DNA of 64,000 nt from Clostridia bacterium (GTDB lineage Bacteria; Bacillota; Clostridia; TANB77; CAG-465): positions 8,928-72,927 of the forward strand of contig JAVVTJ010000001.1 of NCBI GenBank assembly GCA_036653755.1, given 5' to 3'. The number at the start of each line of letters is the position of its first letter. Position 1 is the stretch's first letter. The notes below the pieces were generated by a model that saw only the letters and a program-made list of their open reading frames with translations, had not been told where the DNA came from and ran no database searches. The position numbers were made by a program, and so were the translations under genes. Of this stretch, positions 5,148 to 63,889 are shown one piece after another.

Positions 5148-5903
5148 TTATTTTTTAAAAATGTGATCTTTAATTATAGCAGTAGTTGTAAGCGTGTTAA
5201 ACCATTGCTTATTACATTTGTCACTTATATTTGGATTGTAAAAGTATAGTGCCCCATTAGAGTAGTCTTTTCCTTTAAGTGCAATTTTAACGGCTTTGTA
5301 TGTTGTATTAGAAATTATAGCATTTTTTATAGTTCCATTACTAACTGGCTGAAATTGTCCTGGTGAGTAAACTACATCAATAGCGTTATCTGGAAAGTCA
5401 TTACTTTTAATTCTGTTTAAAATTGTTGATGCTACAGCAGCTTTACCTTTAATTGGCTGATCACCAGCTTCTTTTTCAGTTATAGCAAGTAATACTTCAA
5501 TGTCATCAATTTTTGTATTAATTGATTTTTTAATTATGATAGCAGCTTCATCTTTGGCAGATTTTTTTATTTTTTTTGCTATTTTTTCTGCATTTTTAAC
5601 TTTACTATATAATTGTTGATTTGCTTTTTTATTAGCCTCATGTAAAATTATTTTTGCTTTTTCTTCAGTAGAAAAAATTATGTTGTCAGCTTTCTCTTGA
5701 GCAGAAAAAATTATATTGTCTGCTTCCTCTTGAGCAGACAATACTATGTTATTAGCTTTCTCTATTTGAATTAATTTATTACTTATATAAATTAAACCCA
5801 AAAGCGAGATTACTAATAGAATAGATACTATAGTTCTTCTTTTAATAACCATTACTTTTCTTTGTTCCCGGAATTTATTAATATTCAGTGTTTTTAATAA
5901 CAT
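5148..5903 (-). CDS. Cell-wall hydrolase, SleB/CwlJ (Hydrolase_2) family, N-terminal membrane anchor plus triplicated helical repeat
   Basis: C-terminal domain ...AAVASTILNRIKSNDFPDNAIDVVYSPGQFQPV...GALYFYNP matches the SleB/CwlJ catalytic domain. N-terminal TM (IVSILLVISLLGLIY). Three tandem ~33-bp DNA repeats at 5672-5770 encode NIVLSAQEEAD/NIIFSAQEKAD/NIIFSTEEKAK. AAAGGAG RBS before ATG 5903. In-frame CGG at 5870-5868. Confidence 0.7.
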   Translation of the reverse strand: MLLKTLNINKFREQRKVMVIKRRTIVSILLVISLLGLIYISNKLIQIEKANNIVLSAQEEADNIIFSAQEKADNIIFSTEEKAKIILHEANKKANQQLYSKVKNAEKIAKKIKKSAKDEAAIIIKKSINTKIDDIEVLLAITEKEAGDQPIKGKAAVASTILNRIKSNDFPDNAIDVVYSPGQFQPVSNGTIKNAIISNTTYKAVKIALKGKDYSNGALYFYNPNISDKCNKQWFNTLTTTAIIKDHIFKK

Positions 5904-9897: not shown

Positions 9898-10737
9898 ATG
9901 ATAATAGATGTAAAAACAATAGTTAAAAATAAAAAAGAAGAATTAATAAAAAAAATAGATAAATTAAAAGAAAATAATATAGTTCCAAAACTTGTATTAA
10001 TATGTGCAAGTGATGATAAAGCATCTGAAATATATGTAAGTAAAAAAAGAAATATGTGCAAAGAAGTAGGCATTGAAGAAGAAGAGTTTTTATTTGATAC
10101 ATTAGTTACAACTGATAAAATAATAGGTGTTATAAAAAAGTTAAATGATGATATTTCAGTAGATGGAATATTAGTACAACTTCCATTATATAAACATTTA
10201 GATGAAAATAAAATTTTAAATAGCATTTCACCATGTAAAGATGTAGATGGACTTCATCCTTTAAATCTTGGTAGGTTATTTGCAAACGAATCTGGAATTG
10301 TATCTTGTACGCCAAAAGGAATTATGACTGTATTAGATGATTTAAATATTCATATTGCTGGAAGTAATGTTGTAGTTATAGGTAGAAGTATTTTAGTAGG
10401 AAAACCAATAGCAGCGTTATTATTAAATAGAAATGCTACTGTTACAATATGTCATTCTAAAACTGAAAATTTAAAATTATTTACATTGAATGCAGATATT
10501 TTAATAGTAGCTGTTGGAAAGCCTAAGATAATTACTGATGATATGGTAAAAGAAGGTTCGATTGTAATTGATGTTGGAATAAATAGAACAGAAAATGGAA
10601 AAATAATTGGAGATGTAGATACTGAAAATGTAAATAAAGTGGCTAAATTTACAACACCAGTGCCAGGTGGTATTGGACTTACTACTGTTTTGTCATTACT
10701 TGAAAATGTAGTTAAAGTTTCAGAAAATAGATCATAG
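9898..10737 (+). CDS. folD: Bifunctional methylenetetrahydrofolate dehydrogenase/cyclohydrolase
   Basis: Typical FolD length (279 aa), motifs VVVIGRSILVGKPIAALL, PVPGGIG. Stop TAG lies inside a repeat box. Confidence 0.9.
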   Translation: MIIDVKTIVKNKKEELIKKIDKLKENNIVPKLVLICASDDKASEIYVSKKRNMCKEVGIEEEEFLFDTLVTTDKIIGVIKKLNDDISVDGILVQLPLYKHLDENKILNSISPCKDVDGLHPLNLGRLFANESGIVSCTPKGIMTVLDDLNIHIAGSNVVVIGRSILVGKPIAALLLNRNATVTICHSKTENLKLFTLNADILIVAVGKPKIITDDMVKEGSIVIDVGINRTENGKIIGDVDTENVNKVAKFTTPVPGGIGLTTVLSLLENVVKVSENRS

Positions 10738-11012: not shown

Positions 11013-11086
<74 letters not shown>

Positions 11087-11130: not shown

Positions 11131-12039
11131 ATGGTAATTGAAGAAGAAAAACTAAATTATGTCATAAAAGAAAATCCAGATTTAGTTTTAAAAGTTGAGT
11201 GTTTTAATTTATTTGATACGTTAGAATGTGGACAATGTTTTAGATGGAAAAAAATAATGAGTGATTCAGAAAATAGATATAATTCTGAGTTTATAGGAAT
11301 CATATCTGATAGAGTTATTAGAATAAAACAAAATAATAACTTTATATATGTATATTCAAATTTAAAAGAAAATTTAAAAGATACAGTAGAATATTATTTT
11401 GATTTATATAATAATTATGCTAGAATTGAATCTGAAATAATATGTTTAGATGATAATATTAAAAAAGCAGTTAAAAATACAACTGGAATTCATATATTAA
11501 ATCAAGCAACTTTTGAGACTTTAATTTCTTATATTATATCATCAAATAATAATATTCCTAGAATAAAAAAATCTATTGAAGAGATTTCAAATAGATATGG
11601 GAAAAAAGTTATATTTGAAGAAAAGGAATATCATTTATTTCCTACAATTGAAGAATTATCTAATGTTACAGAAGCAGAGTTTAAAGCTTGTGGTGTAGGA
11701 TTTAGAGATAAATATTTAGTGAAAACTGTAGCTGATTTAATGGAAAATAATATTTATGCGGAATGTACTTCAAAATTAACTAATGTGCAATTAAAAAAAG
11801 TATTGATGTCATTTGTAGGTGTAGGACCTAAAGTTGCAGATTGTGTTATGTTATTTTCATATGGGAGGCAAGATGTTTTTCCAATAGATGTTTGGGTAAA
11901 AAGAGTTATGGAAAAATTATACTTAAAAAAAGAATCTAGCTTAAAAGAAATATTTGAATATGCAGAAGATTATTTTGGAAGTTATGCTGGAATTATTCAA
12001 CAACATTTATTTTATAATATACGAAATGGTTTGTTATAA
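11131..12039 (+). CDS. ogg: 8-oxoguanine DNA glycosylase/AP lyase (Ogg family, HhH-GPD)
   Basis: HhH-GPD motif FVGVGPKVADCVMLFSYGRQDVFPIDVWVKRV. Bacterial Ogg length (302 aa). Confidence 0.75.
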   Translation: MVIEEEKLNYVIKENPDLVLKVECFNLFDTLECGQCFRWKKIMSDSENRYNSEFIGIISDRVIRIKQNNNFIYVYSNLKENLKDTVEYYFDLYNNYARIESEIICLDDNIKKAVKNTTGIHILNQATFETLISYIISSNNNIPRIKKSIEEISNRYGKKVIFEEKEYHLFPTIEELSNVTEAEFKACGVGFRDKYLVKTVADLMENNIYAECTSKLTNVQLKKVLMSFVGVGPKVADCVMLFSYGRQDVFPIDVWVKRVMEKLYLKKESSLKEIFEYAEDYFGSYAGIIQQHLFYNIRNGLL

Positions 12040-13665: not shown

Positions 13666-14349
13666 ATGAGTAAAAGAATGAAAGAAATAGCTAAAATCGT
13701 AGAACCAGGAAAAGTATATGATATAAATGAAGCTATTGAATTGATGCTTAAAATGCCTAAAGTTAAATTTGATGAAACAGTAGAAATGCATGTTAAATTA
13801 GGTGTTGATGGTAAACAAGCTGATCAACAAGTTAGAGGAGTAGTAGTACTTCCTAATGGTACTGGTAAAACTAAAAAAGTATTAGTTTTAGCTAAAGGTG
13901 AAAAAGCAGAAGCAGCAAAAGAAGCAGGTGCTGATTTTGTTGGAGATGATGATATGATTAAAAAAATACAAACTGAAAATTGGTTTGGATTTGATACAAT
14001 TATAGCAACACCTGATATGATGCCTGCACTTGGAAGAGTAGCAAAATTATTAGGACCTAAAGGTTTAATGCCTAATCCTAAATCTGGAACAGTTACTTTA
14101 GACGTAGCAAAAGCAGTACTTGAAACTAAAGCTGGTAAAATTGAATATAGATTGGATAAAAACAATATAATTCATTGTCCAATTGGAAAAATATCTTTCG
14201 GTGCTGACAAAATAAAAGAAAATTATATGACTTTATTAGAAACTATAATAAAAGCAAAACCTGCTGTTGCAAAAGGAACATATTTACAATCTGTTGCTAT
14301 TGCATCAACAATGGGTGCTGGACTAAAAATAAATTCATCATCTAAATAA
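13666..14349 (+). CDS. rplA: 50S ribosomal protein L1
   Basis: 227 aa, canonical L1 sequence. Gene order L11-L1. Confidence 0.95.
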
Positions 14350-14359
14350 GTAAAAATAA

Positions 14360-14480
14360 TAAGCCAAAGACAGTAGGTGATTAAATTCATAAATCCTACC
14401 GAGGTGTTTAGATTTAAAATCGTATTTTAAATTCTGCAAAACATCTCGCTTTGCAGAATTTTAATTTTGGAGGAGGCGAA
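14360..14480 (+). promoter_or_regulatory. Ribosomal protein L10 leader (autoregulatory RNA structure)
   Basis: Structured GC-richer intergenic segment between rplA and rplJ with hairpin gcaaaacatctcgctttgcagaa, in the conserved position of the Firmicutes L10 leader. Confidence 0.4.
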
Positions 14481-15602: not shown

Positions 15603-17391
15603 TCAGTTAAGTTTTGTCCGTTTTGTATTAATTATTTCTGTAAGATATTCTTTATCGATCAATTTAAATATTGTATCGTTTTTATTAGTTAATATTATTT
15701 TTATTTCTTGTTCTACTAATTCTAAATATTTAGGATCATATGTTTTAGGAAAAGGAGACTTTTTTCTATTTAAAACTTCTTTAGGAATATCATTTTCAAA
15801 TGCTTTTCTAAGAAGTGACTTTTCAATTGGAACTAAGGTACTTTTATTTAAACCAAGTTTCAGATTATATGGTATGTTGTATACATATTCAAAAATTTTG
15901 TAATCTGCAAATGGAATTCTAACATCTAAATCAGCATAATTTGCAGCTCGTTCTGTTCGTTCTAGTAAAGTATTCATAAACCATTTAATAGTAAGATATT
16001 GAACTTTCCTGAATTTTTTATTTTCTTCTGATTCATTATTTAAAAATGTAACATTTTTTAATGTATTTTTGTAATTATAATCAATATATTCACTTATTTC
16101 ATTTTTAGAAATAATATCTTTATTTATTAGATTTTCACGTATATTTTTGGATAGACACCATGGAAAAAAATTTAATCCATCATCGTCTTGTGTATTTATG
16201 AATTTTTTATCATAAAACCAAGGATAGCCTCCAAAAATTTCATCACTGCATTCTCCAGATAAACATATATTAGTATTTTTTTCTTTTATAGCCATGCAAA
16301 ATGCTAGCATTGATGAATCAACATCAGCCATGCCGGGCATATCTCTATTTATCATAGATGGCACAAGTAAATTATATAATTCATTAGCGTTAAAACTTAT
16401 ATTACTATGATTAGTATTTAAATGTTTTTGCATAATTTTAACATAATCAGAATCAATAGTAGGTTGATAATTATTTGATATAAAATCTGATTTATTGTTT
16501 TCGTATTCAATTGAAAAAGTATTTAAATTTTGACTTTTATTTTTAGCAATAGTAGATAGTATGCTAGAATCTAATCCACCTGATAACATACAAGATATAG
16601 TTTCGTTATTTATTTGTGTATTAGTTGCATTCATAACTAATTTTCTAATTTTTTTTATACAGGTATTTTCATCATCGTTACAAGGAGCTGTTTTTAAATC
16701 CCAATATTTGTATGTTATAAGTCCCATATTAGAATAAATTGCGTAATGACCTGGAAGTAATTCAAAAATATCTTTGAAATATGTAATTCCGGGTGTATGT
16801 GCAGGGCCGAAGAGCAATAAGTTCTAGTGCTGATTGTTTATCTATTTTAGCTTCTATATTAGGTATACAAAGAATATCTTTTATATTAGTAGAAAAAATA
16901 AAGTTATTATCGTTTTTCATGTAATATAGTGGTTTAACTCCAATTCTATCTTTTGCTAAAAAAATAGTGTCATTAATTTTATCATAGATACATATTGCAA
17001 AAACACCATCAAGTAATTCTAAAAATTTCTCTTTATATTCATTATAGCAAGAAAGTAATATTTCTGCATCTAAATAAGTATCCAAATATTCTTCAGGTAT
17101 GACTTTACTTTTTCTTAAATTAGTTTTTGTATTAAAGCAGTATCCAAGTTTTATTAATTTATTTTTTATATCTTTTATATTATAGATTTTTCCTGTATGC
17201 ATTATGCAATATTTATTTTTGTCAAAGCTTTTTGAGAAAAATCCATTAGATAGATTAATATGTTTAGTCTTAAACATATTAATACATTCGGATATAGAAA
17301 AACGTTTTTTTAAATTTATGTGCATTTCTTCTATAAAATTACAGTTAGAAATATCATCATTGTAATTTACAATGCCTAAATATCTATTCAT
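15603..17391 (-). pseudogene. asnB: Asparagine synthetase (glutamine-hydrolysing), interrupted by +1 frameshift at CGG (plus-strand 16807-16809)
   Basis: N-terminal GATase ORF (17391-16762) and C-terminal synthetase ORF (16817-15603) with SGGLDSS PP-loop. Removing the C of ctt-CGG-ccc joins ...ELIAL-GPAHTPGITYF... A second in-frame CGG lies 5 codons before the stop (15620-15618). Confidence 0.7.
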
Positions 17392-17440: not shown

Positions 17441-17498
17441 CATTAGGGCTAGCTTTTTAAAAAAGTGTACACACTTTTTTAAAAAGCTAGCCCTAATG
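17441..17498. repeat. Perfect 58-bp palindrome of two inverted GCTAGCCC boxes (left boundary of tnpB element)
   Basis: cattagggctagctttttaaaaaagtgtac / gtacacttttttaaaaagctagccctaatg. Confidence 0.8.
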
Positions 17499-17780
17499 TA
17501 GTGCATCGACAAAACTAGACAGTAATTGTATAGTACTTTTAATTGATATATGATTGAGTAAGTAATATAATATATATGTCCGGGGGCACCGGAGTTTGCA
17601 TGCTAAATTAGCACTAGATTATGTGCTGTACGCATGAACCTTAATTGGATGTCACAAAGCTAGCCCACTAGGCCACTACGGAATTTTTAGTTCTGTAAGT
17701 TTAATGCACGTTAAGTTGCACAATAAATATATAATAATGAAAGTCCATTTTAATTTTATAGTAAAAGGAGAACGTTTTTT

Positions 17781-18956
17781 ATGTTAAAATTTATCACATA
17801 TAAATATAGAATATATCCAAATGATGTTCAAAAAGAAAAAATTGAAAATAATTTCAAGTGCTGTAAAAGTATATATAATAAGCTACTTTGTTATAGAACG
17901 GAAGAATATAATAGATATAAAAAATATGTAAAATATTGTGAAAGAAATGACAAATTTGTTGATAAAAAGTATTTTAATAGTAAATGTAAAATACCATCAT
18001 TATCTAAAATTAAAGAATTTTATCCTGAATTAAAGAAAGCAGATAGTTTAGCTATATGTAATGAATGGTGTAATCTTAATAAATCTTTTACAAATTTTTT
18101 TAGTCATAGAGGAAAATTTCCTAAAAGCAAGCAATATGATGATAAGAAAAGTTACATAACTTGCTTGGTAAATAACAATATAAGAATAAATAATAATAGA
18201 TTAAGATTACCCAAAATAGGTATGATCAAAATAAAACTTTATAGAAAAATACCAAACGGTTTAGTTATAAAAAGATGTATAGTAATGTCAGATAAAATTG
18301 ATAGATATTATGTATCAATTTTAGTATGCACAGAAATTCCAAAAATAAATAAAAAATTAAATATTGACAATATATTAGGATTGGATTTTAAAATTAGTGA
18401 TATTTTTGTTGATAGTAACGGAAATACTCCTAAATTTATAAGACCATATAAAAGTTCAATTGAAAAACTAAAATACTTATCAAAAATATTATCTAGAAAA
18501 ATAAAATTCTCTAAAAATTGGTATAAACACTTAAAACATATACAAAAGTTACATAAAACAATAGCATTTAAAAGAAAAGATTTTTTGGATAAACTTTCTA
18601 ATGTAATATCAAAAAAATATGATGTTATAGTAGCTGAAACATTATCTATAAAAGAAATGACTTCAAAATTTGATGACGGTACATATATATATGACACAGG
18701 CTATTGTAAATTTTTGACAATGCTAAAAAATAAATTAAATAGTCTTGGAAAAAAAATAATTAAAGTAGATAGGTGGTTTCCGTCAAGCAAAAAGTGTAGT
18801 AATTGTGGCAGTATTAAAGAAGATTTGCTACTCGAAGAACGTGTATATTACTGTGATAAATGTGGGAAAATTCAAGATAGAGATGAAAATGCAGCAATAA
18901 ACATTGCAAATGAAGGTAAAAGAATATTAATTGAAAATATGTGCATAAATCAATAA
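17781..18956 (+). CDS. tnpB: TnpB (OrfB_IS605) RuvC-like RNA-guided endonuclease family protein
   Basis: 391 aa. N-terminal YKYRIYPN HTH, RuvC-I LGLDFKISD, RuvC-II VIVAETLSIKEM, zinc finger CSNCG...CDKCG, RuvC-III RDENAAINIA. Confidence 0.85.
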   Translation: MLKFITYKYRIYPNDVQKEKIENNFKCCKSIYNKLLCYRTEEYNRYKKYVKYCERNDKFVDKKYFNSKCKIPSLSKIKEFYPELKKADSLAICNEWCNLNKSFTNFFSHRGKFPKSKQYDDKKSYITCLVNNNIRINNNRLRLPKIGMIKIKLYRKIPNGLVIKRCIVMSDKIDRYYVSILVCTEIPKINKKLNIDNILGLDFKISDIFVDSNGNTPKFIRPYKSSIEKLKYLSKILSRKIKFSKNWYKHLKHIQKLHKTIAFKRKDFLDKLSNVISKKYDVIVAETLSIKEMTSKFDDGTYIYDTGYCKFLTMLKNKLNSLGKKIIKVDRWFPSSKKCSNCGSIKEDLLLEERVYYCDKCGKIQDRDENAAINIANEGKRILIENMCINQ

Positions 18957-18977: not shown

Positions 18978-19015
18978 TAGAAGCTTTATAAAATTTAATT
19001 TTATAAAGCTAGCCC
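18978..19015. repeat. Degenerate palindromic box (right boundary of tnpB element)
   Basis: tagaagctttataaaatt / aattttataaagctagccc. Confidence 0.6.
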
Positions 19016-24820: not shown

Positions 24821-26578
24821 ATGAGTAAAAAAATGATTACATTAAATATAGATGGAAAAGATGTAACAGTAGAAGAAGGCACTACAATATTAGAAGCAGC
24901 TAGAAAAATAGATATAGATATACCAACTTTATGTTTCTTAAAAGAAATAAACGAAGTTGGCGATTGTAGAATGTGTTTAGTTGATATTGAAGGTGTAAGA
25001 GGATATAAAGCTTCATGTGTATATCCTGCCGAAGAAGGATTAGTTGTTAGAACTAATACAAAAGACTTAATTGATACAAAAAGAACAATTTTAGAACTTA
25101 TTTTATCATCTCATGAAAAAAAATGTTTAACTTGTATTAGAAATACAAATTGCAGATTACAAGATTTATGTCGTAGATTTGAAATACCAGATTTAGAATT
25201 TGAAGGTGAAATGCCAGAAGCAGTTTTAGATGATTCATCTCCTTGTATAGTTAGAAATACAGCTAAATGTATTTTATGTAGAAGATGCATTAATGTATGT
25301 AAAAAAGTTCAAGGAGTTTCGGCTATAAGTAATGTAGATAGAGGTTTTAAATCTCATGTTGGCGTAGCACTTAATATGGGAATAAAAGATTCAACATGCG
25401 TTGGCTGTGGTCAGTGTATACTTCATTGCCCAGTTGGGGCACTTACTGAAAAAAGTAATATCAAAGGTTTAAAAGCAGCACTTGCAGATAAAAACAAAAT
25501 AGTAATTATTCAAACAGCACCAGCTGTAAGAGCAACTATTGGTGAAGAATTTGGTATGCAAGTTGGAAGTTTAGTTACTGGTAAAATGGTATCAGCATTA
25601 AGAAGACTTGGATTTGATAAAGTTTTTGATACAGATATTGGTGCAGATATTACAATAATGGAAGAGGCAACAGAATTCATATCAAGACTTAAAAATGGCT
25701 CAAAACTTCCAATGATAACTTCTTGTAGTAGTAGCTGGATTAATTTTGCAGAAAAATTTTATCCAGAACAGCTTTCATATTTATCTACAACTAAATCTCC
25801 TATGGAAATATTAGGAACGCTAATTAAAACATATTATGCAGAAAAAGTACATATTGCACCTGAAAATATATATTCTGTTGCACTTATGCCTTGTTCTGCT
25901 AAAAAATCTGAAATATTAAGAGAAGAATTAATGCTAGAAAATGGACTTCAAGCAGTAGATAATGTTGTGACAACAAGAGAAATGGCAAGGCTTCTAAAAG
26001 AATCAAATATTGACTTATCTAGTTTAGATGATGAAGAATTCGATAGTCCATTAGGACTTGCTACTGGTGCAGGACATATATTTGGCACAACTGGTGGAGT
26101 TATGGAAGCGGCACTTCGTAGTGTTTCATATTTATTAGATGGAACTGAAATAGAAAATGTTGAGTTTAAGGCTGTAAGAGGAAACAGTAGTATTAAAGAG
26201 GCAGAAATAGTTGTAGCAGGAGTAACTCATAAAATAGCAGTAGCACAAGGACTAAGTAATGTTTCAAAAATAATGGATGAAATAAAAAATGGAGAAAGTA
26301 AATATAGTTTTGTAGAAGCAATGTCATGTCCGGGTGGTTGTATAAATGGTGGAGGCCAGCCACTTGTTGATGAATATAAAGCAAGTAAAATTGATGTAAT
26401 AGGTCTTCGTGCAAAGGCGTTATATGAAGCAGATAAAAAAGCGTTATATAGAAAATCACATCAAAATCCATATGTAAAAGAAATATACAAAAATTATATA
26501 GGAGAGCCAAACGGAAAACATGCACATGAATTATTACACACTCACTACAAAAAACAAGACGTATATGTAAAGCATTAG
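24821..26578 (+). CDS. hydA: [FeFe] hydrogenase catalytic subunit (HydA, CpI-like domain architecture) with non-canonical L1 motif
   Basis: 2Fe-2S N-domain, His-ligated and two Cys 4Fe-4S clusters. H-domain motifs L2 MPCSAKKSE and L3 EAMSCPGGCINGGGQP present. L1 reads PMITSCSSSWINF (25709-25738) instead of TSCCPxW. Confidence 0.85.
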   Translation: MSKKMITLNIDGKDVTVEEGTTILEAARKIDIDIPTLCFLKEINEVGDCRMCLVDIEGVRGYKASCVYPAEEGLVVRTNTKDLIDTKRTILELILSSHEKKCLTCIRNTNCRLQDLCRRFEIPDLEFEGEMPEAVLDDSSPCIVRNTAKCILCRRCINVCKKVQGVSAISNVDRGFKSHVGVALNMGIKDSTCVGCGQCILHCPVGALTEKSNIKGLKAALADKNKIVIIQTAPAVRATIGEEFGMQVGSLVTGKMVSALRRLGFDKVFDTDIGADITIMEEATEFISRLKNGSKLPMITSCSSSWINFAEKFYPEQLSYLSTTKSPMEILGTLIKTYYAEKVHIAPENIYSVALMPCSAKKSEILREELMLENGLQAVDNVVTTREMARLLKESNIDLSSLDDEEFDSPLGLATGAGHIFGTTGGVMEAALRSVSYLLDGTEIENVEFKAVRGNSSIKEAEIVVAGVTHKIAVAQGLSNVSKIMDEIKNGESKYSFVEAMSCPGGCINGGGQPLVDEYKASKIDVIGLRAKALYEADKKALYRKSHQNPYVKEIYKNYIGEPNGKHAHELLHTHYKKQDVYVKH

Positions 26579-26739
26579 GGCTAGCTTTTTAAAAAATTGT
26601 GCAATGCTAAAATTAGCCTCAAAATGTTTAGACTAGGAATTGTGCAACGCTAAAAGTAAAGTACAATATATGAATTAAAAGTGGCAAAAAAATCGAAGAA
26701 AAAGTAGTTAATAAAAATTTTAAAAAGCTAGCCCTAATG
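26575..26739. repeat. 119-bp core flanked by inverted GCTAGCCC boxes (MITE-like mini-element)
   Basis: Left box cattagggctagctttttaaaaaa (26575-26598, contains the hydA TAG stop). Right box ttttaaaaagctagccctaatg (26718-26739). Core has imperfect direct repeat aattgtgcaatgctaaaa / aattgtgcaacgctaaaa. Confidence 0.65.
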
Positions 26740-38527: not shown

Positions 38528-39307
38528 ATGAAAGAATTTTTTACAGAAACAGGTGGCATAGGTTTTAATATATTTGGTATTTTACATATATCAATTACAA
38601 TTGTTACAATTATTGGAGCTATTATGTTATTTGTATTTAGAGATAAATTAAAGAGATTTAAAAACAAAAAAAATATTAGATATATTATGGCTGCAGTACT
38701 TTTTATAAATATGGCAGTATATTATATATCACTTATACTCAGAAATGACTATACTTGGAAAACAGATTTACCACTACATTTTTGTTTTATAACGGGATAT
38801 TTATTTATGTTTATACTTATAACAGGAAATAAAAAATTATATAAAATAATATACTTTTTTACTTTTGTAGGACCGATACCTGCAATATTACTTCCTGATT
38901 TAACACAGACATATGATAGATTTATATTTTGGCAGTTTATAATAAGCCATCATGTAATGTTACTTACAAGTATGTATGTATTAGTAGTATTAGAATATAA
39001 AGTTGAAAAAAGTGATATATTTAAAGCATTTATTGCTGGTAATATATTGGCTGCTACTATGGCAATATTTAATTCAATATGTGGAACAAATTATATAATG
39101 ATGGGAGAGCTTCCAGAACATATATATAGAATATTTCCATTTACAGCATATTTACCACCAATAATATGGCTTGAACTTGCTGGACTTATAGCAGTAAGCA
39201 TTGCATATATTCCAGTATATATTTTAAATAGAATTAGTGGCAAATTTGATGAATTAGAAGCTACTGATGTCACATTGTTAGATGATGAAATAAATTGTGC
39301 GCATTAG
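38528..39307 (+). CDS. Multi-pass integral membrane protein (YwaF-like), function unknown
   Basis: 259 aa with about 7 predicted TM segments. Stop TAG lies inside a repeat box. Confidence 0.5.
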   Translation: MKEFFTETGGIGFNIFGILHISITIVTIIGAIMLFVFRDKLKRFKNKKNIRYIMAAVLFINMAVYYISLILRNDYTWKTDLPLHFCFITGYLFMFILITGNKKLYKIIYFFTFVGPIPAILLPDLTQTYDRFIFWQFIISHHVMLLTSMYVLVVLEYKVEKSDIFKAFIAGNILAATMAIFNSICGTNYIMMGELPEHIYRIFPFTAYLPPIIWLELAGLIAVSIAYIPVYILNRISGKFDELEATDVTLLDDEINCAH

Positions 39308-39840
39308 GGTTAGCTTTGTAAAATCTGTATGGGTTAAATGCCCATACAGATTTTTTGCTACGCAAAGGCGTGATAAACGTAATACTTAAAATATAAATTT
39401 TAAGAGAAGTAATATAACTTTTTTTAAAATTTGATTAAAATTTTAAAATTGGGCATAATAAACGTAAGTATAAAATATAAATTTTAAGTAAAATAATATA
39501 GCTTCTTTTAATGCTTTTTAAAAGAAACGGGTAAATTATTTAAAATTGAAAATTTGATGTATAAACTACATCCGGATCAAAATACAAGTATTTATATACT
39601 TGAAACCCTGTGGGTTAGCTTTGTGGCAAATTGATTCATGCGTACGGCGTAAGGTGCTATTTTAGCATGCTAATTCCAGTACCCCTGGACATTGATATTA
39701 TACTACTTATATTGTTAATATTCAATATGTAGCTTAAAAAACTCATCGACAAATATCGCTAGAAATGCTTATAGTTTACGTATGAAAATTTATAGCGGCA
39801 TTTAGCCACTATAAATTTTACAAAGCTAACCCGAAAATAT
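39301..39840 (-). mobile_element. tnpB-less derivative (MITE-like) of the IS200/IS605-type element, bounded by inverted GTTAGC-variant boxes
   Basis: Inverted boxes at 39303-39324 and 39816-39838. The reverse complement of 39590-39700 aligns with the IS left-end-like segment 17575-17680 (gtccaggggtactggaattagcatgctaaaatagcac... / gtccgggggcaccggagtttgcatgctaaattagcac..., both then ...cacaaagcta[ga]cccac). Internal 48-bp direct repeats at 39371-39418 and 39453-39501. Hairpin plus T-run at 39324-39357. Confidence 0.55.
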
Positions 39841-39868
39841 TGACAAACACTTGTTTAAATGGTATAAT
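39840..39868 (+). promoter_or_regulatory. Sigma-A-type promoter for uvrA
   Basis: TTGACA (39840-39845), 17-bp spacer, TATAAT (39863-39868). Confidence 0.55.
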
Positions 39869-39907
39869 TATTCGTATTAAAAACATGCTATATTTATGGA
39901 GGATAAT

Positions 39908-42742
39908 ATGTTAGATAAAATAGTTATAAAAGGTGCTAAAGAACATAATTTAAAAAATATAAGTTTAGAAATTCCAAGAGATAAATTAATTGTATTTACT
40001 GGTTTGTCTGGTAGTGGTAAAACATCTCTTGCTTTTGATACAATATATGCAGAAGGTCAAAGAAGATATGTAGAGTCTTTGTCTGCTTATGCAAGGCAAT
40101 TTTTAGGTATAATGGAAAAACCAGATGTTGAATATATAGAAGGTTTATCTCCTGCTATTTCAATTGATCAAAAAACTACATCTAAAAATCCACGTTCTAC
40201 GGTTGGAACTATTACAGAAATATATGACTATTTGCGCTTGTTATATGCAAGAGTTGGTATTCCTTATTGTCCTATATGTGGCAAAAAAATACGTAAACAA
40301 ACAGTTGATGAAATAGTTGAACAAATTATGGAATTTCCTATTGGCAAGAAGTTATTTATAATGGCTCCTGTAATTCGTGGCAAAAAAGGAGAACATACTA
40401 AATTATTAGAAACAGCTATTAAAGATGGTTTTGTAAGAGCAAGAGTAGATGGTGAAATAATTGATTTAGCGGAAGAACTACCTAAAATAGAGAAAAATGA
40501 TAAACATAATATTGAAATAATAGTAGATAGATTAGTTGTGGGAGAAGGCATTAGGCAAAGACTTACAGAATCTGTTGAACTTGCACTATCACAGGCAAAT
40601 AATTTAGTTATGATATCTACACCAGAGCGTGAAGATTATATATTTAGTCAAAATTATGCATGTCCTGATTGTGGAATTAGTATTGATGAATTAAATCCAA
40701 GAATGTTTTCTTTTAATAGTCCATTTGGTGCATGTCCTGATTGTACTGGTTTAGGAGAATTATTAAAAATAGACATAGAAAAGATTATGCCAAATAAAGA
40801 AAAAAAATTAAACGATTATGGTGCAATTCAAGGCTGGTCGGGTGGTGGTAGTATTATTGATACTATTAGTGGTATGTATATTAAAGGATTGTGTGAGCAT
40901 TATAAAATAAAACCTACTACTAAACTTAAAGATCTTCCAGAAGATTTTATGCAAATTTTGTTATATGGCAGTAAAGGTGAAAAAATTAAATTTCAGCATA
41001 TTACAAAAACATTAGTAAGAGATTTTGAAGCTGAATTTGAAGGTGTTGTAAATACTCTTGAAAGAAGATTTACTCAAACTTCTTCGCAAGGTATGAAAAC
41101 ATATTATGAACAGTTTATGTCAACAACTTTGTGCCCTACATGTAAAGGAGCAAGGTTAAAAAAAGAAATGTTATCAGTCAAAATAGGAACATTAAATATA
41201 CATGAATTATGTAATAAAAATATTTTAGCTATAAAAGATTATGTAAATGATATATATGAAAATAAAATGAGTGAAAAAAATAAAATGATAGCAGAGCAAA
41301 TTGTTAAAGAATTAAATAGTAGGTTACAATTTTTAATAGATGTAGGTCTTAATTATTTAACATTATCTAGAAGTTCTGGAACTTTAAGTGGAGGAGAAGC
41401 TCAGCGTATAAGACTTGCAACTCAAATAGGTTCAGGGCTTACAGGAGTTTTATATATATTAGATGAGCCAAGTATTGGACTTCATCAAAAAGATAATGCA
41501 AAACTTCTAGCTTCACTTAAAAAAATGAGAGATTTAGGTAATACTTTAATAGTAGTAGAACATGACGAAGATACTATGAATGAATCAGATTATATAGTAG
41601 ATATAGGTCCTGGCGCTGGCGTTCATGGTGGAAATGTTGTATTTGCAGGTACAGTAGAAGATATGAAAAAAGACGAAAATTCTTTAACTGGTAAATATTT
41701 AAGTGGCAGAATTAAAATTGAAGTTCCTAAAAAAAGAAGAAAAATAGAAAATGGATATATTGAAATAAAAGGTGCTAGAGAGCATAACTTAAAAAATATA
41801 AACGTTAAATTTCCAGTAGGTGTATTTACATGTGTAACAGGAGTATCTGGAAGTGGTAAATCTACTTTGGTAAATGAAATATTATCTAAGGCAATTTCAA
41901 AAGAGTTAAATGGAGCAAGAGCAAAACCTGGACTTCATACTAAAATAACTGGAATGGAAAAAATAGATAAAATTATAAATATAGATCAATCTCCAATAGG
42001 TAGAACTCCTCGTTCTAATCCTGCAACATATACGGGAATGTTTGACCCAATACGTGATTTATTTGCAGCAACAGCAGATAGTAAAATGAGAGGATATTCA
42101 AAAGGAAGATTTAGTTTTAATATTCCTGGTGGTAGATGTGAAGCTTGTAATGGTGATGGAATAATAAAAATAGAAATGCATTTTTTACCTGATGTATATA
42201 TTCCTTGTGAAGTTTGCAGAGGTCATAGATATTCAAAAGAAACATTAGAAGTTAAATATAAAGGAAAAAACATAAGTGAAATTTTAGATATGACTATTGA
42301 AGAAGCATTAGAGTTTTTTAAAAATATTCCTACAATAAAAAATAAAGTACAAACTTTATTTGATGTAGGTTTAGGGTATATAAAACTTGGTCAACCTTCG
42401 ACAACTTTAAGTGGAGGAGAAGCTCAGCGTATAAAACTTGCAACTGAATTATCTAAAAGAGCAACAGGTAAAACGTTATATATACTAGATGAACCAACAA
42501 CAGGACTTCATATGGCAGATGTACATAATTTAATTCATATTATAAATAGATTAACAGATAGTGGTAATACCGTTATTATAATAGAACATAATTTAGATAT
42601 AATAAAGTCTGCTGATTATATAATTGATTTAGGTCCAGATGGTGGAGATATGGGTGGAAGTTTAGTAGTCTCAGGTACGCCAGAGATAGTAGCAAAATGT
42701 AAAGAAAGTTATACAGGAGAGTTTTTGAAAAAATTGCTTTAG
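39908..42742 (+). CDS. uvrA: Excinuclease ABC subunit A
   Basis: Two ABC ATPase modules ([27 protein letters not shown]), two LSGGEAQRI signatures, zinc fingers. Start at ATG 39908 ([18 protein letters not shown]). The track start 39896 is an alternative. Stop TAG inside a repeat box. Confidence 0.9.
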
Positions 42743-42760
42743 GGTTAGCTTTGTAAAAAA
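42739..42760. repeat. GTTAGC-variant box overlapping the uvrA stop codon
   Basis: tttagggttagctttgtaaaaa. The uvrA TAG (42740-42742) is inside the box. Confidence 0.7.
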
Positions 42761-48609: not shown

Positions 48610-48948
48610 TAAGTATTACATATAGTCGCGCATAGTAATATGTGAGGAAAGTCCGGGCTCCATAGAGCATATGATGCTAGATAACGTCTAGTGGGAGTGA
48701 TCCTAAGGAAAGTGCAACAGAAAATAACCGCTTTATTTATTTAAAGTAAGGGTGAAAAAGTGAGGTAAGAGCTCACTAAACTTTATGGTGACATATTGTT
48801 TTTGTGTAAACCCCATTTGGAGCAACACCATAAAATAAAGAATAAGACAATGCTCGTCGTCTTTAACGTTTGGTGGCTAGAGATATATAGTGATATATAT
48901 TCGAGATAAATGACTATTTAATACAGAACCCGGCTTACGAAATACTTA
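48610..48948 (+). ncRNA. rnpB: RNase P RNA (bacterial type B)
   Basis: GAGGAAAGTCCGGGCTCCATAG... universal P4 region, ...AGAACCCGGCTTACGAAATACTT 3' end pairing with 5' aagtatt (P1). Tggtataat extended -10 about 30 nt upstream. Confidence 0.85.
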
Positions 48949-48950
48949 TA

Positions 48951-48989
48951 ACAAGTTTTTATACTTTTGTATAGAAACTTGTTTTTTTG
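48951..48989 (+). terminator. Rho-independent terminator after rnpB
   Basis: acaagtttttatac/gtatagaaacttgt stem followed by T7. Confidence 0.7.
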
Positions 48990-49107: not shown

Positions 49108-49133
49108 ATTTTTACAAAGCTAACCCTAAAACT
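49108..49133. repeat. GTTAGC-variant box copy
   Basis: tttttacaaagctaaccctaaaac, in the intergenic region between rnpB and the 49215 ORF. Confidence 0.65.
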
Positions 49134-49214: not shown

Positions 49215-50873
49215 ATGAATCCTAATATTATGAATCCTAAAAAATATAAAAAAATAACAAAAAATAATAAAATAAAAAAAGATAAAATAGCTGATAAAAA
49301 TATAAAAAAAAATAAATATAAAAAATCAGATACTTTAACTTTAAATAAAAAATATACGTATTCTTCTAAGACTAATAAAAAAACTAGTTTTTTTATTAAT
49401 TTTATAAAAGTAATTTCTTGCATATGCCTAATTGTAATAATTGGTTTTGTATCTAAGATTATTGTAGATAATTCAGATAATAATATACTTCTTAGTGTAT
49501 TTAGAAATAATGATAATATAAATAATATAGATAAAGAATATGATTTTAAAGTTGGTGTAAATAATTTAGATTTTCAAAATAATGTTTTGGTAAATGAATT
49601 ATACAAATATTCGTATAATACACTAATAAATATAACAGATGAATATGGTATAGAATATAATATTGCAAAAAATATTATAAAAATAGATGAGTTAAATTAT
49701 AAAATAGAGATTAAAGATAATGATTATATTTCAGATATTGTATATACTTTTGAAAAATTAAAATCTACAAATAATAATAGATATTATAAATATTTAAGTA
49801 ATATTACTAATATTAAAATTAACGAAAATAATATATTAATTACATTAACTATTCCTAATGAATATATTGTTTATGCTTTTGATTTTAAAATTGAAGAAAA
49901 AAATAAATCTATTGAAAAACAAAATAATACAAATAGATATTTTGTTACATCTTTACAAAATACAATAAAATTTAATAGAAATGAATCTTTGAATAAAAAT
50001 ATTTTAAAAAGTATAACATTAAACAATTATACTGATAGTGATGAAATTGTAAATGATTTTAGAACTAATAAAATAGATGCTTTTATGACATCAAGTGAAG
50101 AAGATGTTCGTTTAATAGGTAAGCATGAATATAATATAAAAAAGTATAGAGATGGTGAAACATACTTTTTATTTGGTAATAAAAATTCTGAGCTATTTAA
50201 ATTAAAAGAAGTAAGGAAAGCTTTTGCATATTCGTTGAATAGAAATGAAATTTGTAAAAAGATAAGTAGCTCTTTTACAGAAGTTATAGATATTCCATAT
50301 ATATATTCAGATATAAAATATAAATATGATATATACGGAGCAGAAAATTCTTTAATTGCAGAGTCTTGGAATAAATCTAGTGGAATTTATACTAAAAAAA
50401 TTAATGGTGTAAATAAAATATTATCTCTTAATCTTTTAGTAAATATAGATGATATAAATAAAGTATTAATAGCCGATAATATAAAACTTATGTTAGAAAA
50501 TATTGGTATTAAAATAAATATAATAAAAATAAAACAAAATGAGTTAATAGAAAAAGTAAAATTAGGAGAATATGATTTAACTTTATCTACTGTAAATATA
50601 AATAATAATCCTGATACAACATATTTAAAAGATTATATAAATATAAATAAAGTTACAGATGAGGCATTTAATAAAGTTAAAACAAGTGATGTTAATAATT
50701 TAAGCAGTAATATACAAAATTTGCAAAATGTGTTATCAAGTGAGATAGCTTGTATTGGTATAGCAGCTAAAAATACAAATTTTATATATCAAAAATATAT
50801 CGAAGGATTTAATGATATAAAATATATGAATATATTTAAAAATATAGATAAAATAGGTAAAATTGTTAAGTAA
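49215..50873 (+). CDS. Hypothetical membrane-anchored protein with Lys-rich cytoplasmic N-terminus
   Basis: 552 aa. MNPNIMNPKK duplicated N-terminal codons, about 60-aa K-rich tail, one TM (SFFINFIKVISCICLIVIIGFV), large Asn/Ile-rich extracytoplasmic domain (possibly solute-binding-like). Confidence 0.45.
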   Translation: MNPNIMNPKKYKKITKNNKIKKDKIADKNIKKNKYKKSDTLTLNKKYTYSSKTNKKTSFFINFIKVISCICLIVIIGFVSKIIVDNSDNNILLSVFRNNDNINNIDKEYDFKVGVNNLDFQNNVLVNELYKYSYNTLINITDEYGIEYNIAKNIIKIDELNYKIEIKDNDYISDIVYTFEKLKSTNNNRYYKYLSNITNIKINENNILITLTIPNEYIVYAFDFKIEEKNKSIEKQNNTNRYFVTSLQNTIKFNRNESLNKNILKSITLNNYTDSDEIVNDFRTNKIDAFMTSSEEDVRLIGKHEYNIKKYRDGETYFLFGNKNSELFKLKEVRKAFAYSLNRNEICKKISSSFTEVIDIPYIYSDIKYKYDIYGAENSLIAESWNKSSGIYTKKINGVNKILSLNLLVNIDDINKVLIADNIKLMLENIGIKINIIKIKQNELIEKVKLGEYDLTLSTVNINNNPDTTYLKDYININKVTDEAFNKVKTSDVNNLSSNIQNLQNVLSSEIACIGIAAKNTNFIYQKYIEGFNDIKYMNIFKNIDKIGKIVK

Positions 50874-63715: not shown

Positions 63716-63801
63716 TGGTGGGAAGAGATGGATTCGAACCATCGTAAGCGTAAGCTAACAGATTTACAGTCTGCCTCCTTTAGCCACTCGGACATCTTCC
63801 C
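63716..63801 (-). tRNA. tRNA-Tyr (anticodon GTA), long variable arm
   Basis: Reverse complement GGGAAGATGTCCGAGTGG...GCAGACTGTAAATCTGT...long extra arm...GGTTCGAATCCATCTCTTCCCACCA. Confidence 0.85.
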
Positions 63802-63812
63802 AGATATAAAAA

Positions 63813-63889
63813 TGGTGGGCCTTCAGAGACTCGAACTCCGGACCGACCGGTTATGAGCCGGTTGCTCTAACCAACTGAGCTAAAGGCCC
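63813..63889 (-). tRNA. tRNA with CAT anticodon (tRNA-Ile2-lysidine type or elongator Met)
   Basis: Reverse complement GGGCCTTTAGCTCAGTTGGTTAGAGCAACCGGCTCATAACCGGTCGGTCCGGAGTTCGAGTCTCTGAAGGCCCACCA. C4/C5 acceptor-stem pairs favour Ile2 (TilS substrate). Confidence 0.8.

Follow-up and report, generated by a model that had tools for sequence, protein, structure and literature searches.

What is the 540-bp region that lies upstream of uvrA in an uncultured "Clostridia bacterium"? We scanned both strands of a 64-kb stretch (hereafter, the window) of contig JAVVTJ010000001.1 from this metagenome-assembled genome (MAG) and studied the intergenic space between the gene of a TMEM164/TIGR02206-family membrane protein (38528–39307) and uvrA (39896–42742). 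A preliminary description of the sequence had read 39301–39840 as a non-autonomous relative of the tnpB-carrying insertion sequence (IS) found elsewhere in the window, bounded by inverted boxes and possibly expressing a structured RNA. Our analysis indicates that the minus strand at 39727–39578 is probably an intact, promoter-driven gene for a TnpB guide RNA (omegaRNA) without a tnpB of its own (an orphan), which would serve a TnpB encoded elsewhere in the genome. Inspection of open reading frames (ORFs) revealed no credible one in the 540 bp. The predicted gene comprises the following features, in which R1 and R2 are the covariance models introduced below and the box is a short dispersed repeat.

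39697–39725, minus strand: sigma-70-type promoter of the orphan RNA gene, TTGAAT, 17-nt spacer, TATAAT, matching the consensus at 10 of 12 positions.
39623–39690, minus strand: omegaRNA-scaffold homolog, recognised by R1 and R2 and by covariation.
39612–39622, minus strand: guide-slot 11-mer AAAGCTAACCC, directly 3′ of the scaffold terminus, found in the box scan; equivalent to the end of the R2 model in the tnpB-linked copy (GTCAC followed by AAAG).
39578–39616, minus strand: 3′ part of the predicted transcript, from a minimum free energy (MFE) fold.

Read along the minus strand, the scaffold consists of the hairpin P1 (TCCAG GGGTA CTGGA, 39689–39675), the helix P2 (CATGC at 39669–39665 paired with GCATG at 39641–39637), which encloses a weakened P3, and the terminus AATCAATTTGCCAC (39636–39623). 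The guide slot is an A/T variant identical to the boxes at 39307, 39822, 42742, and 49116, and its last 5 nt are taken up by a small hairpin (AACCC-ACA-GGGTT, 39616–39604). A second hairpin (CAAGTAT-ATAA-ATACTTG, 39602–39585) followed by TATTTTG forms a weak terminator, and homologous hairpins are present at three of the related loci that we fetched (L006, L009, and L020).

The orphan has a paralog in the window, which precedes tnpB.

17543–17705, plus strand: tnpB-linked RNA paralog, supported by alignment, R1, R2 (its best match in the window), and the promoter scan.
17781–18956, plus strand: tnpB, 391 aa, with HTH_OrfB_IS605, OrfB_IS605, and Cas12f1-like_TNB domains (domain search).
19000–19015, plus strand: box copy 3′ of tnpB, TTTAT followed by AAAGCTAGCCC (box scan).

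The promoter of the tnpB-linked RNA (TTGATA-17-TATAAT, 17543–17571) matches the consensus at 11 of 12 positions and has the same 17-nt spacer as that of the orphan. Its scaffold (17579–17655) ends in GGATGTCAC, and the guide slot AAAGCTAGCCC at 17656–17666 is followed by 3′ hairpins. The homology to the segment upstream of tnpB that the preliminary description had reported is real: the reverse complement of 39590–39710 is ~85% identical to 17559–17670 over ~110 nt with three small indels, including cacaaagctaacccac versus cacaaagctagcccac. The minus strand at 39572–39727, compared with 17543–17705, is thus a tnpB-less paralog of the RNA module preceding tnpB, as had been proposed. Across the tnpB-linked units, homology to the orphan covers ~155 nt (39727 to 39572, from the –10 region to the terminator) and fades beyond, and does not extend over the whole 540 bp. 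The scaffold, guide slot, and terminator hairpin of the orphan are closest to those of L006 and L009, which are of the P0002/P0003 type. The proteins P0001 and P0002 and the TMEM164-family protein of the window have neighbouring accessions in three independent MAG assemblies, and a cognate TnpB (P0002) is therefore placed in the orphan's own genome. The exact TnpB protein of the window was found only in GCA_036650815.1, GCA_036657435.1, and the Logan assemblies of SRR25820366/68, always in an identical context.

The arrangement of an RNA module ahead of tnpB is shared by a clade. The closest relatives of the window TnpB are 46–59% identical and all come from Clostridia MAGs. Eight of the nine relatives fetched (L006, L009, L020, the pair L008/L113, L010, L011, and L111) share one layout ahead of the start codon, and they occupy six different chromosomal positions. 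It runs from a motif near GTCGAAATTTGCGATCGA through a promoter (TTGACx-17-TATAAT), a 5-bp P1 hairpin with a GRGNA loop, P2 enclosing a variable P3, a short linker, ACAAAG[CT]TA[GA]CCC, and one or two small hairpins to the ribosome-binding site of tnpB. Most relatives have the GTCGAAATTTGCGATCGA motif, with a weak version in L009 and L011; in both window copies it is rearranged or inverted. The ninth relative, L026, has the upstream motif and promoter, with no recognisable RNA module or box.

A covariance model built from the four closest RNA copies (R1) gave matches upstream of tnpB in L020, L011, L111, and L113 (E 1e-8 to 1e-3); those in L010 and L008 were weak. Its only match elsewhere in the window and in ~380 kb of fetched DNA was the orphan (39576–39693), which scored 138 bits compared with 110 bits for the tnpB-linked window copy. 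Of the further copies that the preliminary description had envisaged, those accompanying tnpB are therefore real at several related loci, and a tnpB-less copy besides the orphan was absent from the same DNA. Compensatory changes were found in five of the five pairs of P1 (both sides changed, 100% of cells paired) and in three of the five pairs of P2; these counts come from model-fitted alignments, which we used because MAFFT misaligned P1 and P2 of distant members. The pairing of P1 is also visible in the raw sequences (CCGG/CCGG, CCAG/CTGG, TGTG/CACA, CGTG/CACG, and TGTT/AACA). The suggestion of a structured RNA thus stands as regards a good minus-strand promoter, helices supported by covariation, and the lack of a credible ORF, and expression is a prediction from the sequence. 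Neither window copy, nor any of the viral modules described next, had a match in Rfam at the gathering threshold or at permissive E-values. A group I intron or IStron was considered and rejected, there being no Rfam match at permissive E-values and the RNA being ~110 nt long with its own promoter.

The identity of the scaffold was examined using distant TnpB genes of viral contigs (31–39% identical), which belong to ordinary IS605-type elements with a left-end hairpin ~60 nt ahead of the start codon and, immediately past the stop codon, a conserved module that ends in GTTCAC or GTCAC. Judged by its position and by the literature (PMC10705468, PMC10691335), this module is the omegaRNA scaffold spanning the right end. 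It contains a hairpin with a GGGNA loop, GTTAGC, P2 enclosing P3, and the terminus GGATGTCAC or GTATGCCAC; one viral example reads CCGTG-GGGCA-CACGG-AGTTAGC, then P2 enclosing P3, then GGATGTCAC, compared with TCCGG-GGGCA-CCGGA-GTTTGC, P2 enclosing P3, and GGATGTCAC in the tnpB-linked window copy. A second covariance model, R2, was built from nine viral modules only, and its E-value calibration is rough. With filters off, its two best matches over both strands of the window were 17577–17655 (E 0.05, full-length, ending exactly in GGATGTCAC) and 39600–39691 (E 0.11). It also matched the upstream RNA of L010 (4.6e-4), L020 (5.7e-4), L111 (1.4e-3), L011 (4.1e-3), and L009 (0.08). No R2 match was found past the stop codon of any tnpB of the clade (E up to 10 in the window and up to 3 in the clade loci), including the interval between the tnpB stop and the box at 19000–19015; the L113 ORF itself contains one weak match (E 2), ~100 nt ahead of the stop codon. 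Joint alignment with the canonical modules gave three helices with 98.9% of cells paired, and 11 of 13 pairs were changed on both sides.

The R2 model ends in CAC with AAAG immediately next in the tnpB-linked window copy, L111, and L011, and 2 nt earlier in L010; for L020 and L009 the aligned stretch continues into the box or beyond it. The segment that the preliminary description had called a structured IS left end is, by this homology, a relocated omegaRNA scaffold, related instead to the right end, and the box embedded in it starts where the guide starts. The usual placement of an omegaRNA at the 3′ end of tnpB, spanning the right end, was not found at either window copy: one RNA lies 5′ of tnpB under its own promoter and the orphan lies without tnpB. 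The clade as a whole thus appears to carry the 3′ scaffold upstream of tnpB under a separate sigma-70 promoter. A search of the viral contigs for the left-end-motif pattern gave only chance matches inside coding regions. One viral IS605-type element (L033) has two tandem scaffold modules after tnpB (2620–2735 and 2811–2907, both ~1e-27 against R2), so the window is not alone in having extra guide-RNA modules. Separately, in L111 the upstream motif recurs directly 3′ of tnpB (11170–11680) as TTGTCGAATTTTGCGATCGA, together with a TTGACA-17-TATAAT promoter; AT-rich DNA of ~400 nt and then a box (TTTAT AAAGTTAGCCC) follow, and we detected no sign of an omegaRNA scaffold in this segment.

The boxes provide the link between guide and genome. 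The dispersed repeat TTTTTA[ACT]AAAG[CT]TA[GA]CCC occurs about once per 4 kb of the window, at 463, 2303/2340, 5127, 10737, 17446/17483, 19005, 24787, 26578/26724, 39307, 39822, 42742, and 49116. Because its core, GGGYTAGCTTT, occurs 18 times compared with 1.24 expected, a count reached in none of 100 shuffles, the boxes are on this evidence a genome-wide family and not the ends of a 540-bp element. The two regarded as element termini are only two of at least 17 dispersed copies in the window, and the left one is kept with the gene stop at L028 without an RNA module.

A scan of twelve sequence sets, the window and eleven related loci, for every AAA[GA][CT][TC]A[GA]CCC found copies in ten of them. 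All 49 free boxes (in the window and nine other loci) are directly preceded by TTTAC (23), TTTAT (17), or TTTAA (9), usually after a longer T run, and the ten copies within RNA genes are preceded by the scaffold terminus (GTCAC, GCCAC, CTAC, and similar). The guide variant equals the box variant in every sequence set having both: GCTAGCCC in L006, L009, and L020, GTTAGCCC in L008, L113, L111, and L010, and AAAACCAACCC in L011. The agreement extends to both variants inside the window, where the tnpB-linked RNA carries GCTAGCCC, as do twelve boxes at 0.4–26.7 kb (the G/C variant), and the orphan carries GCTAACCC, as do only the four A/T-variant boxes, which lie at 39.3–49.1 kb. Two of these flank the orphan, and the others are as follows.

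42742–42757, plus strand: A/T-variant box over the TAG stop of uvrA; its bottom strand reads TTTAC followed by AAAGCTAACCC (box scan).
49111–49126, plus strand: A/T-variant box upstream of the gene starting at 49215, TTTAC followed by AAAGCTAACCC (box scan).

Beyond the 11–13 matching bases the sequences part, free boxes running on as TAA, TAG, or AAA and the RNAs as ACTAGG or ACAGGG. The match of the guide slot to a repeat at gene boundaries suggests RNA-guided recognition of that repeat.

Boxes are placed with respect to genes. Those that read GGGYTAGC overlap the stop codon of the gene upstream or are at most 10 nt away from it; four long ORFs of the window (ending at 10737, 26578, 39307, and 42742) and genes in L008 and L113 actually terminate at the TAG within the box, and in L009, L020, L028, and L111 the ORF stop is another codon inside the box. 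Boxes in the opposite orientation lie just upstream of the ribosome-binding site or promoter of the next gene. Some are paired as perfect palindromes (2299–2354 and 17441–17500), and single ones are followed by hairpins of non-conserved sequence. The 75%-identical ortholog in L028 retains, at 5766–5800, the box that ends the TMEM164-family gene; this locus has neither the RNA module nor uvrA downstream, and its terminator is entirely different. L008 and L113 similarly share the boxes that follow the PLD and TGT genes (L008 2664 versus L113 9716, and L008 945 versus L113 8079). Retention of the box at orthologous gene ends, at near-saturated synonymous divergence, while the terminator has been replaced suggests selection or concerted evolution acting on the box itself. 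Other readings were rejected: an integron attC site (its core GTTRRRY does not fit), a miniature inverted-repeat transposable element (MITE) with terminal inverted repeats and target-site duplications (none were seen, and the palindromes just extend into non-conserved sequence), and a tRNA-like origin of the box or TAG reassignment (neither fits). We also observed an inverted box pair at 26578–26734 around 135 bp with two copies of AATTGTGCAAYGCTAAAA, loosely like the motif upstream of the RNA promoters, and AAAAAATTGTRCAA directly after several other boxes.

The tnpB genes of the clade look vertically inherited rather than recently transposed. Three pairs are syntenic: the window and L111 copies both lie upstream of a fast-evolving gene of unknown function and then fba, the L008 and L113 copies both lie between the PLD gene and a DpaA-like gene, and the L006 and L009 copies both lie upstream of a PP2C phosphatase gene. 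In these pairs (window 17781–18956 versus L111 10001–11158; L008/L113; L006/L009) the TnpB proteins are 50–73% identical and the neighbouring proteins 75–87%; the tnpB genes have dS values of 0.88–0.95, near saturation, and dN/dS values of 0.20–0.44 compared with 0.08–0.16 for neighbouring genes. The D/E/D triad (D202, E286, and D368) is invariant in 15 clade members, as are the zinc-finger cysteines, and these active-looking TnpBs would be nuclease-competent. No tnpA adjoins any fetched tnpB locus of the clade. At orthologous loci with dS ~0.9 the RNA is 80–85% identical compared with 25–28% for unrelated upstream intergenic DNA. Between L008 and L113, identity rises from ~25% to ~80% at the upstream motif, stays at 80–85% through the promoter and RNA, and has its minimum over the 3′ end of the ORF and the DNA immediately following, the opposite of what is expected for an omegaRNA overlapping the 3′ end.

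We propose that the orphan RNA would be transcribed leftwards, away from uvrA, and would load onto a TnpB made elsewhere in the genome, the closest scaffold being that of the P0002 paralog. It would direct this TnpB to the A/T-variant boxes (TTTAC plus AAAGCTAACCC at 39307, 39822, 42742, and 49116) and so provide a second guide in addition to the two tnpB-linked RNAs, which match the G/C variant. Binding without cleavage appears more likely than cutting, because the complementarity to free boxes covers just 11–13 nt; wild-type TnpB with a 10-nt guide was reported to bind DNA without cutting it (PMC13507860), and TnpB-derived repressors (TldRs) with short guides likewise bind rather than cut (PMC10705468). 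A wider reading, which we hold tentatively as a possibility short of probable, is that the vertically inherited TnpB clade forms a genome-wide RNA-guided DNA-binding system, with hard-wired ~11-nt guides to boxes flanked by a target-adjacent motif (TAM), in which the orphan is an extra guide for the variant box. Box binding might then act as a transcriptional roadblock, in insulation or termination, or in recombination control at gene boundaries.

Several observations weigh against this proposal. The orphan is a single copy: the R1 search of the window and ~380 kb of fetched loci recovered no further tnpB-less copy. Its P3 is weakened, and the last 4–5 nt of its guide slot are able to pair into the small downstream hairpin. 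Covariation bore out the expected helices, and single-sequence folding energies were unremarkable, the MFE being no better than that of shuffles (z –0.4 to –1.0), so the structural claim is carried by covariation alone. The R2 matches to the two window copies (E 0.05 and 0.11) are individually marginal under a rough calibration, and with default filters neither copy was found. The complementarity of the guide to free boxes stops at 11–13 nt. TTTAH suggests a TAM-like 5′ motif of TnpB targets by analogy, the TAM being taken from relatives. Insertion of the RNA unit into a box that was already there would by itself make guide and box agree, and where a genome holds dozens of seed matches, an active nuclease of its own would be a hazard unless such short matches are non-cleavable.

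Alternatively, the orphan might be an inert relic, an RNA module left of a P0002-type unit after deletion of tnpB and no longer used, whose intactness would reflect only its age; we consider this unlikely. Its occurrence as the sole tnpB-less copy, its weakened P3, the 230 nt of neighbouring AT-rich filler with a local duplication, and a related genome with an equal gene end and box but without the RNA module all favour this reading. Yet the promoter (10/12, with its 17-nt spacer), P1 (with a compensatory G-C to A-U change), P2, scaffold terminus, and terminator hairpin are all intact, the R1 score exceeds that of the tnpB-linked copy, and the guide variant is found in neither tnpB-linked RNA and is exactly that of the four surrounding boxes.

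Equally doubtful, in our view, is a purely selfish IS605 logic, in which the boxes are an independent repeat, REP-like or terminator-associated, that serves as the preferred insertion site (TTTAH followed by AAAG), the guide is merely the flank, and TnpB only re-cuts the emptied donor site (homing). The canonical guide is indeed the DNA adjoining the right end (PMC10705468), and insertion would account equally well, and without selection, for the guide-box agreement and the local A/T variant. Boxes kept at orthologous gene ends without an RNA nearby may have a function of their own, and the second left-end-motif and promoter unit of L111 and the tandem module of L033 suggest that units can move or duplicate. 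Against this, in the orphan as in all tnpB-linked units, the guide slot and the hairpins after it were copied along with the scaffold, and the guide is therefore part of the unit and not an arbitrary flank. Moreover, tnpB is syntenic across species at saturated dS with no sign of recent transposition, and no tnpA adjoins it.

A protein-independent antisense small RNA, whose exposed CACAAAGCUAACCCAC would pair with the box in mRNAs at stop codons or 3′ untranslated regions and affect stability or termination, is very improbable. Several boxes do lie in sense orientation at the stop codons of long ORFs, and the 5′ part of the box is unpaired in the predicted folds, but the scaffold is homologous to that of a protein-bound guide RNA, roughly half of the boxes are so oriented, relative to the gene beside them, as not to be complementary, and the invariant TTTAH is a DNA-level feature that RNA-RNA pairing does not need. 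Least credible of all is the original view of a structured left end (a DNA hairpin substrate of TnpA) within a 540-bp MITE or palindrome-associated transposable element (PATE) retaining both ends: left- and right-end hairpins of canonical relatives do share sequence, and inverted boxes do flank the region, but, compared helix by helix, the segment corresponds to the right-end/omegaRNA module and not to a left end, it is preceded by a promoter of its own, the boxes are members of a family found genome-wide, palindromic box pairs show no target-site duplication or conserved flank, and no further copies were found in the DNA searched.

The proposed mobility was not borne out either. A second tnpB-less copy was found neither in the window and the ~380 kb nor in three public collections, so mobility of the orphan is not demonstrated, and the related tnpB genes are syntenic across species. 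DNA-pattern scans for the RNA gave one match in genome_contigs, from a Rhizobiaceae MAG, one in metagenome_contigs, from a GC-rich contig, both of them chance matches, and zero in viral_contigs; the source species is apparently missing from these collections. The plasmid collection had zero DNA matches, and TnpB relatives there are at most 42% identical.

Comparison with known systems places the orphan and its clade nearest to the canonical IS200/IS605 TnpB-omegaRNA (ISDra2 and viral contigs L031–L085), with which they share the domain set, the intact RuvC triad, the helix order (a GGGNA-loop hairpin and P2 enclosing P3), a GTCAC terminus followed by the guide, and a T-rich motif 5′ of the matching DNA. 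In contrast to that system, the RNA here lies upstream of tnpB under its own sigma-70 promoter, with hairpins after the guide and no scaffold past the stop; the guide slot is conserved and copied with the unit, and the genes are single-copy and syntenic. PATEs, which are non-autonomous IS200/IS605 derivatives equivalent to MITEs, similarly have no ORF, derive from tnpB elements, and carry right-end-type sequence, but the orphan is present in one copy in the DNA searched, and its homologous unit is a whole transcription unit (promoter, scaffold, guide, and terminator) rather than transposon ends.

For the boxes, the intergenic repeats used for comparison are the repetitive extragenic palindromes (REP) and bacterial interspersed mosaic elements (BIME), and the Correia, RUP, and BOX elements. 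Like REP/BIME-type repeats, boxes are short, abundant (about one per 1.4–4 kb where present), often in inverted hairpin pairs, intergenic by terminators, and conserved in position. Unlike them, they overlap stop codons, the hairpin beside single boxes is not conserved in sequence, and a T run is joined to an 11-mer equal to a TnpB guide slot, which co-varies with it between genomes.

The omegaRNA of IscB (PMC10691335) is also encoded upstream of the nuclease gene, but its guide is at the RNA 5′ end and its scaffold is unrelated, whereas here the orientation is TnpB-like, the guide lying 3′ of the scaffold. The TldRs, repressors that resemble TnpB but have a dead nuclease, include an oppF-associated clade that uses 9–11-nt guides, and TnpBs related to Enterococcus TldRs have the TAMs TTTAA and TTTAT (PMC10705468). 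TldRs (PMC10705468) resemble the present system in being immobile and vertically inherited, with a ~100-nt scaffold, short effective guides, a TTTAA/TTTAT TAM, and fixed targets outside a transposon. Here, in contrast, the RuvC triad is invariant, the candidate targets are dozens of gene-boundary repeats rather than one promoter, and the guide gene lies upstream of the protein gene, with an extra orphan guide gene besides.

The rest of the intergenic space is occupied by the following features.

39303–39323, plus strand: box copy over the in-frame TAG stop of the TMEM164-family gene (TTAGGGTTAGCTTTGTAAAAT; box scan).
39320–39360, plus strand: intrinsic-terminator-like hairpin of the SMC/TMEM164 operon (repeat scan and sequence).
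39367–39511, no strand assigned: two imperfect direct repeats in AT-rich filler (repeat scan).
39785–39832, plus strand: hairpin (39785–39799/39805–39819) followed by a box copy (repeat scan and box scan).
39840–39868, plus strand: uvrA promoter, TTGACA-17-TATAAT with TG, a neighbour outside the RNA gene (12/12 consensus match).

The bottom strand at 39303–39323 reads TTTAC, AAAGCTAACCC, and TAA, with the 11-nt match to the guide slot placed after a TAM-like pentamer; the right-hand box has TTTAC (39817–39821) and AAAGCTAACCC (39822–39832) on the top strand. The inverted boxes noticed earlier are real, with 51-nt arms (39304–39354/39785–39835) that are 80% complementary, and the exact 13-nt core GGGTTAGCTTTGT occurs at 39307–39319 and 39612–39624 and, inverted, at 39820–39832. 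The strong hairpin with its T run was likewise confirmed as a perfect 14-bp stem (39320–39333/39341–39354) with a 7-nt loop. The direct repeats are also present and are longer than the 48 bp first given, at ~60 nt each (39367–39427 and 39452–39511, 88% identical, period 84–85 nt); no relation to an element could be demonstrated for them, a profile search being not significant. As relics of the ribosome-binding site and first codons of tnpB they were rejected, as the alignment was collinear but weak, a profile of nine tnpB 5′ ends failed to recover them (E 5), and Smith-Waterman scores fell among those of shuffled sequences. We read the boxes on either side, the terminator, and the AT-rich repeats as neighbours of the RNA gene and not as ends of a 540-bp element.

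The predicted uvrA promoter was upheld by its full consensus match. A LexA box is expected for an SOS gene such as uvrA, and the promoter spacer contains AAACACTTGTTT (39844–39858), a LexA/Cheo-like imperfect palindrome that we take to resemble the Gram-positive SOS box. A second promoter-like site, TCGACA-17/18-TATAGT on a shared CATCGACAAA motif, is present on the plus strand of both RNA loci (17506–17534 and 39746–39775), co-oriented with the RNA at the tnpB locus and facing uvrA at the orphan locus. Elsewhere in the window, Rfam at the gathering threshold identified ordinary features, namely RNase P RNA (class A), an L10 leader, and three tRNA genes, at 48610–48952, 14346–14473, 11013–11083, and 63719–63889. 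The asparagine synthase gene on the minus strand (15603–17391) is split into overlapping ORFs for the GATase domain (16762–17391) and the Asn_synthase domain (15603–16817); a frameshift, a pseudogene, or an assembly error is possible, and the identical split is found in other MAG contigs.

TnpB is the ancestor of Cas12 and now serves as a compact genome-editing tool. Its known natural roles are transposon homing, by an active nuclease with a flank-defined guide, and promoter repression by nuclease-dead TldRs. The present locus points to a third arrangement, in which an active-looking TnpB occupies fixed chromosomal sites, its guide RNA has moved upstream under its own promoter, the short fixed guide equals a repeat found at dozens of gene boundaries, and at least one guide gene stands alone. 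If the targeting of the boxes is false, the locus still illustrates cleanly how an omegaRNA can be relocated and how an omegaRNA gene can stand as an orphan, both of use for annotation. If the RNA does guide TnpB to the repeats, intergenic repeats would gain a function through an RNA-guided protein, and the clade would offer a natural short-guide binding mode and a natural use of multiple guides by TnpB, a step towards CRISPR-like arrays.

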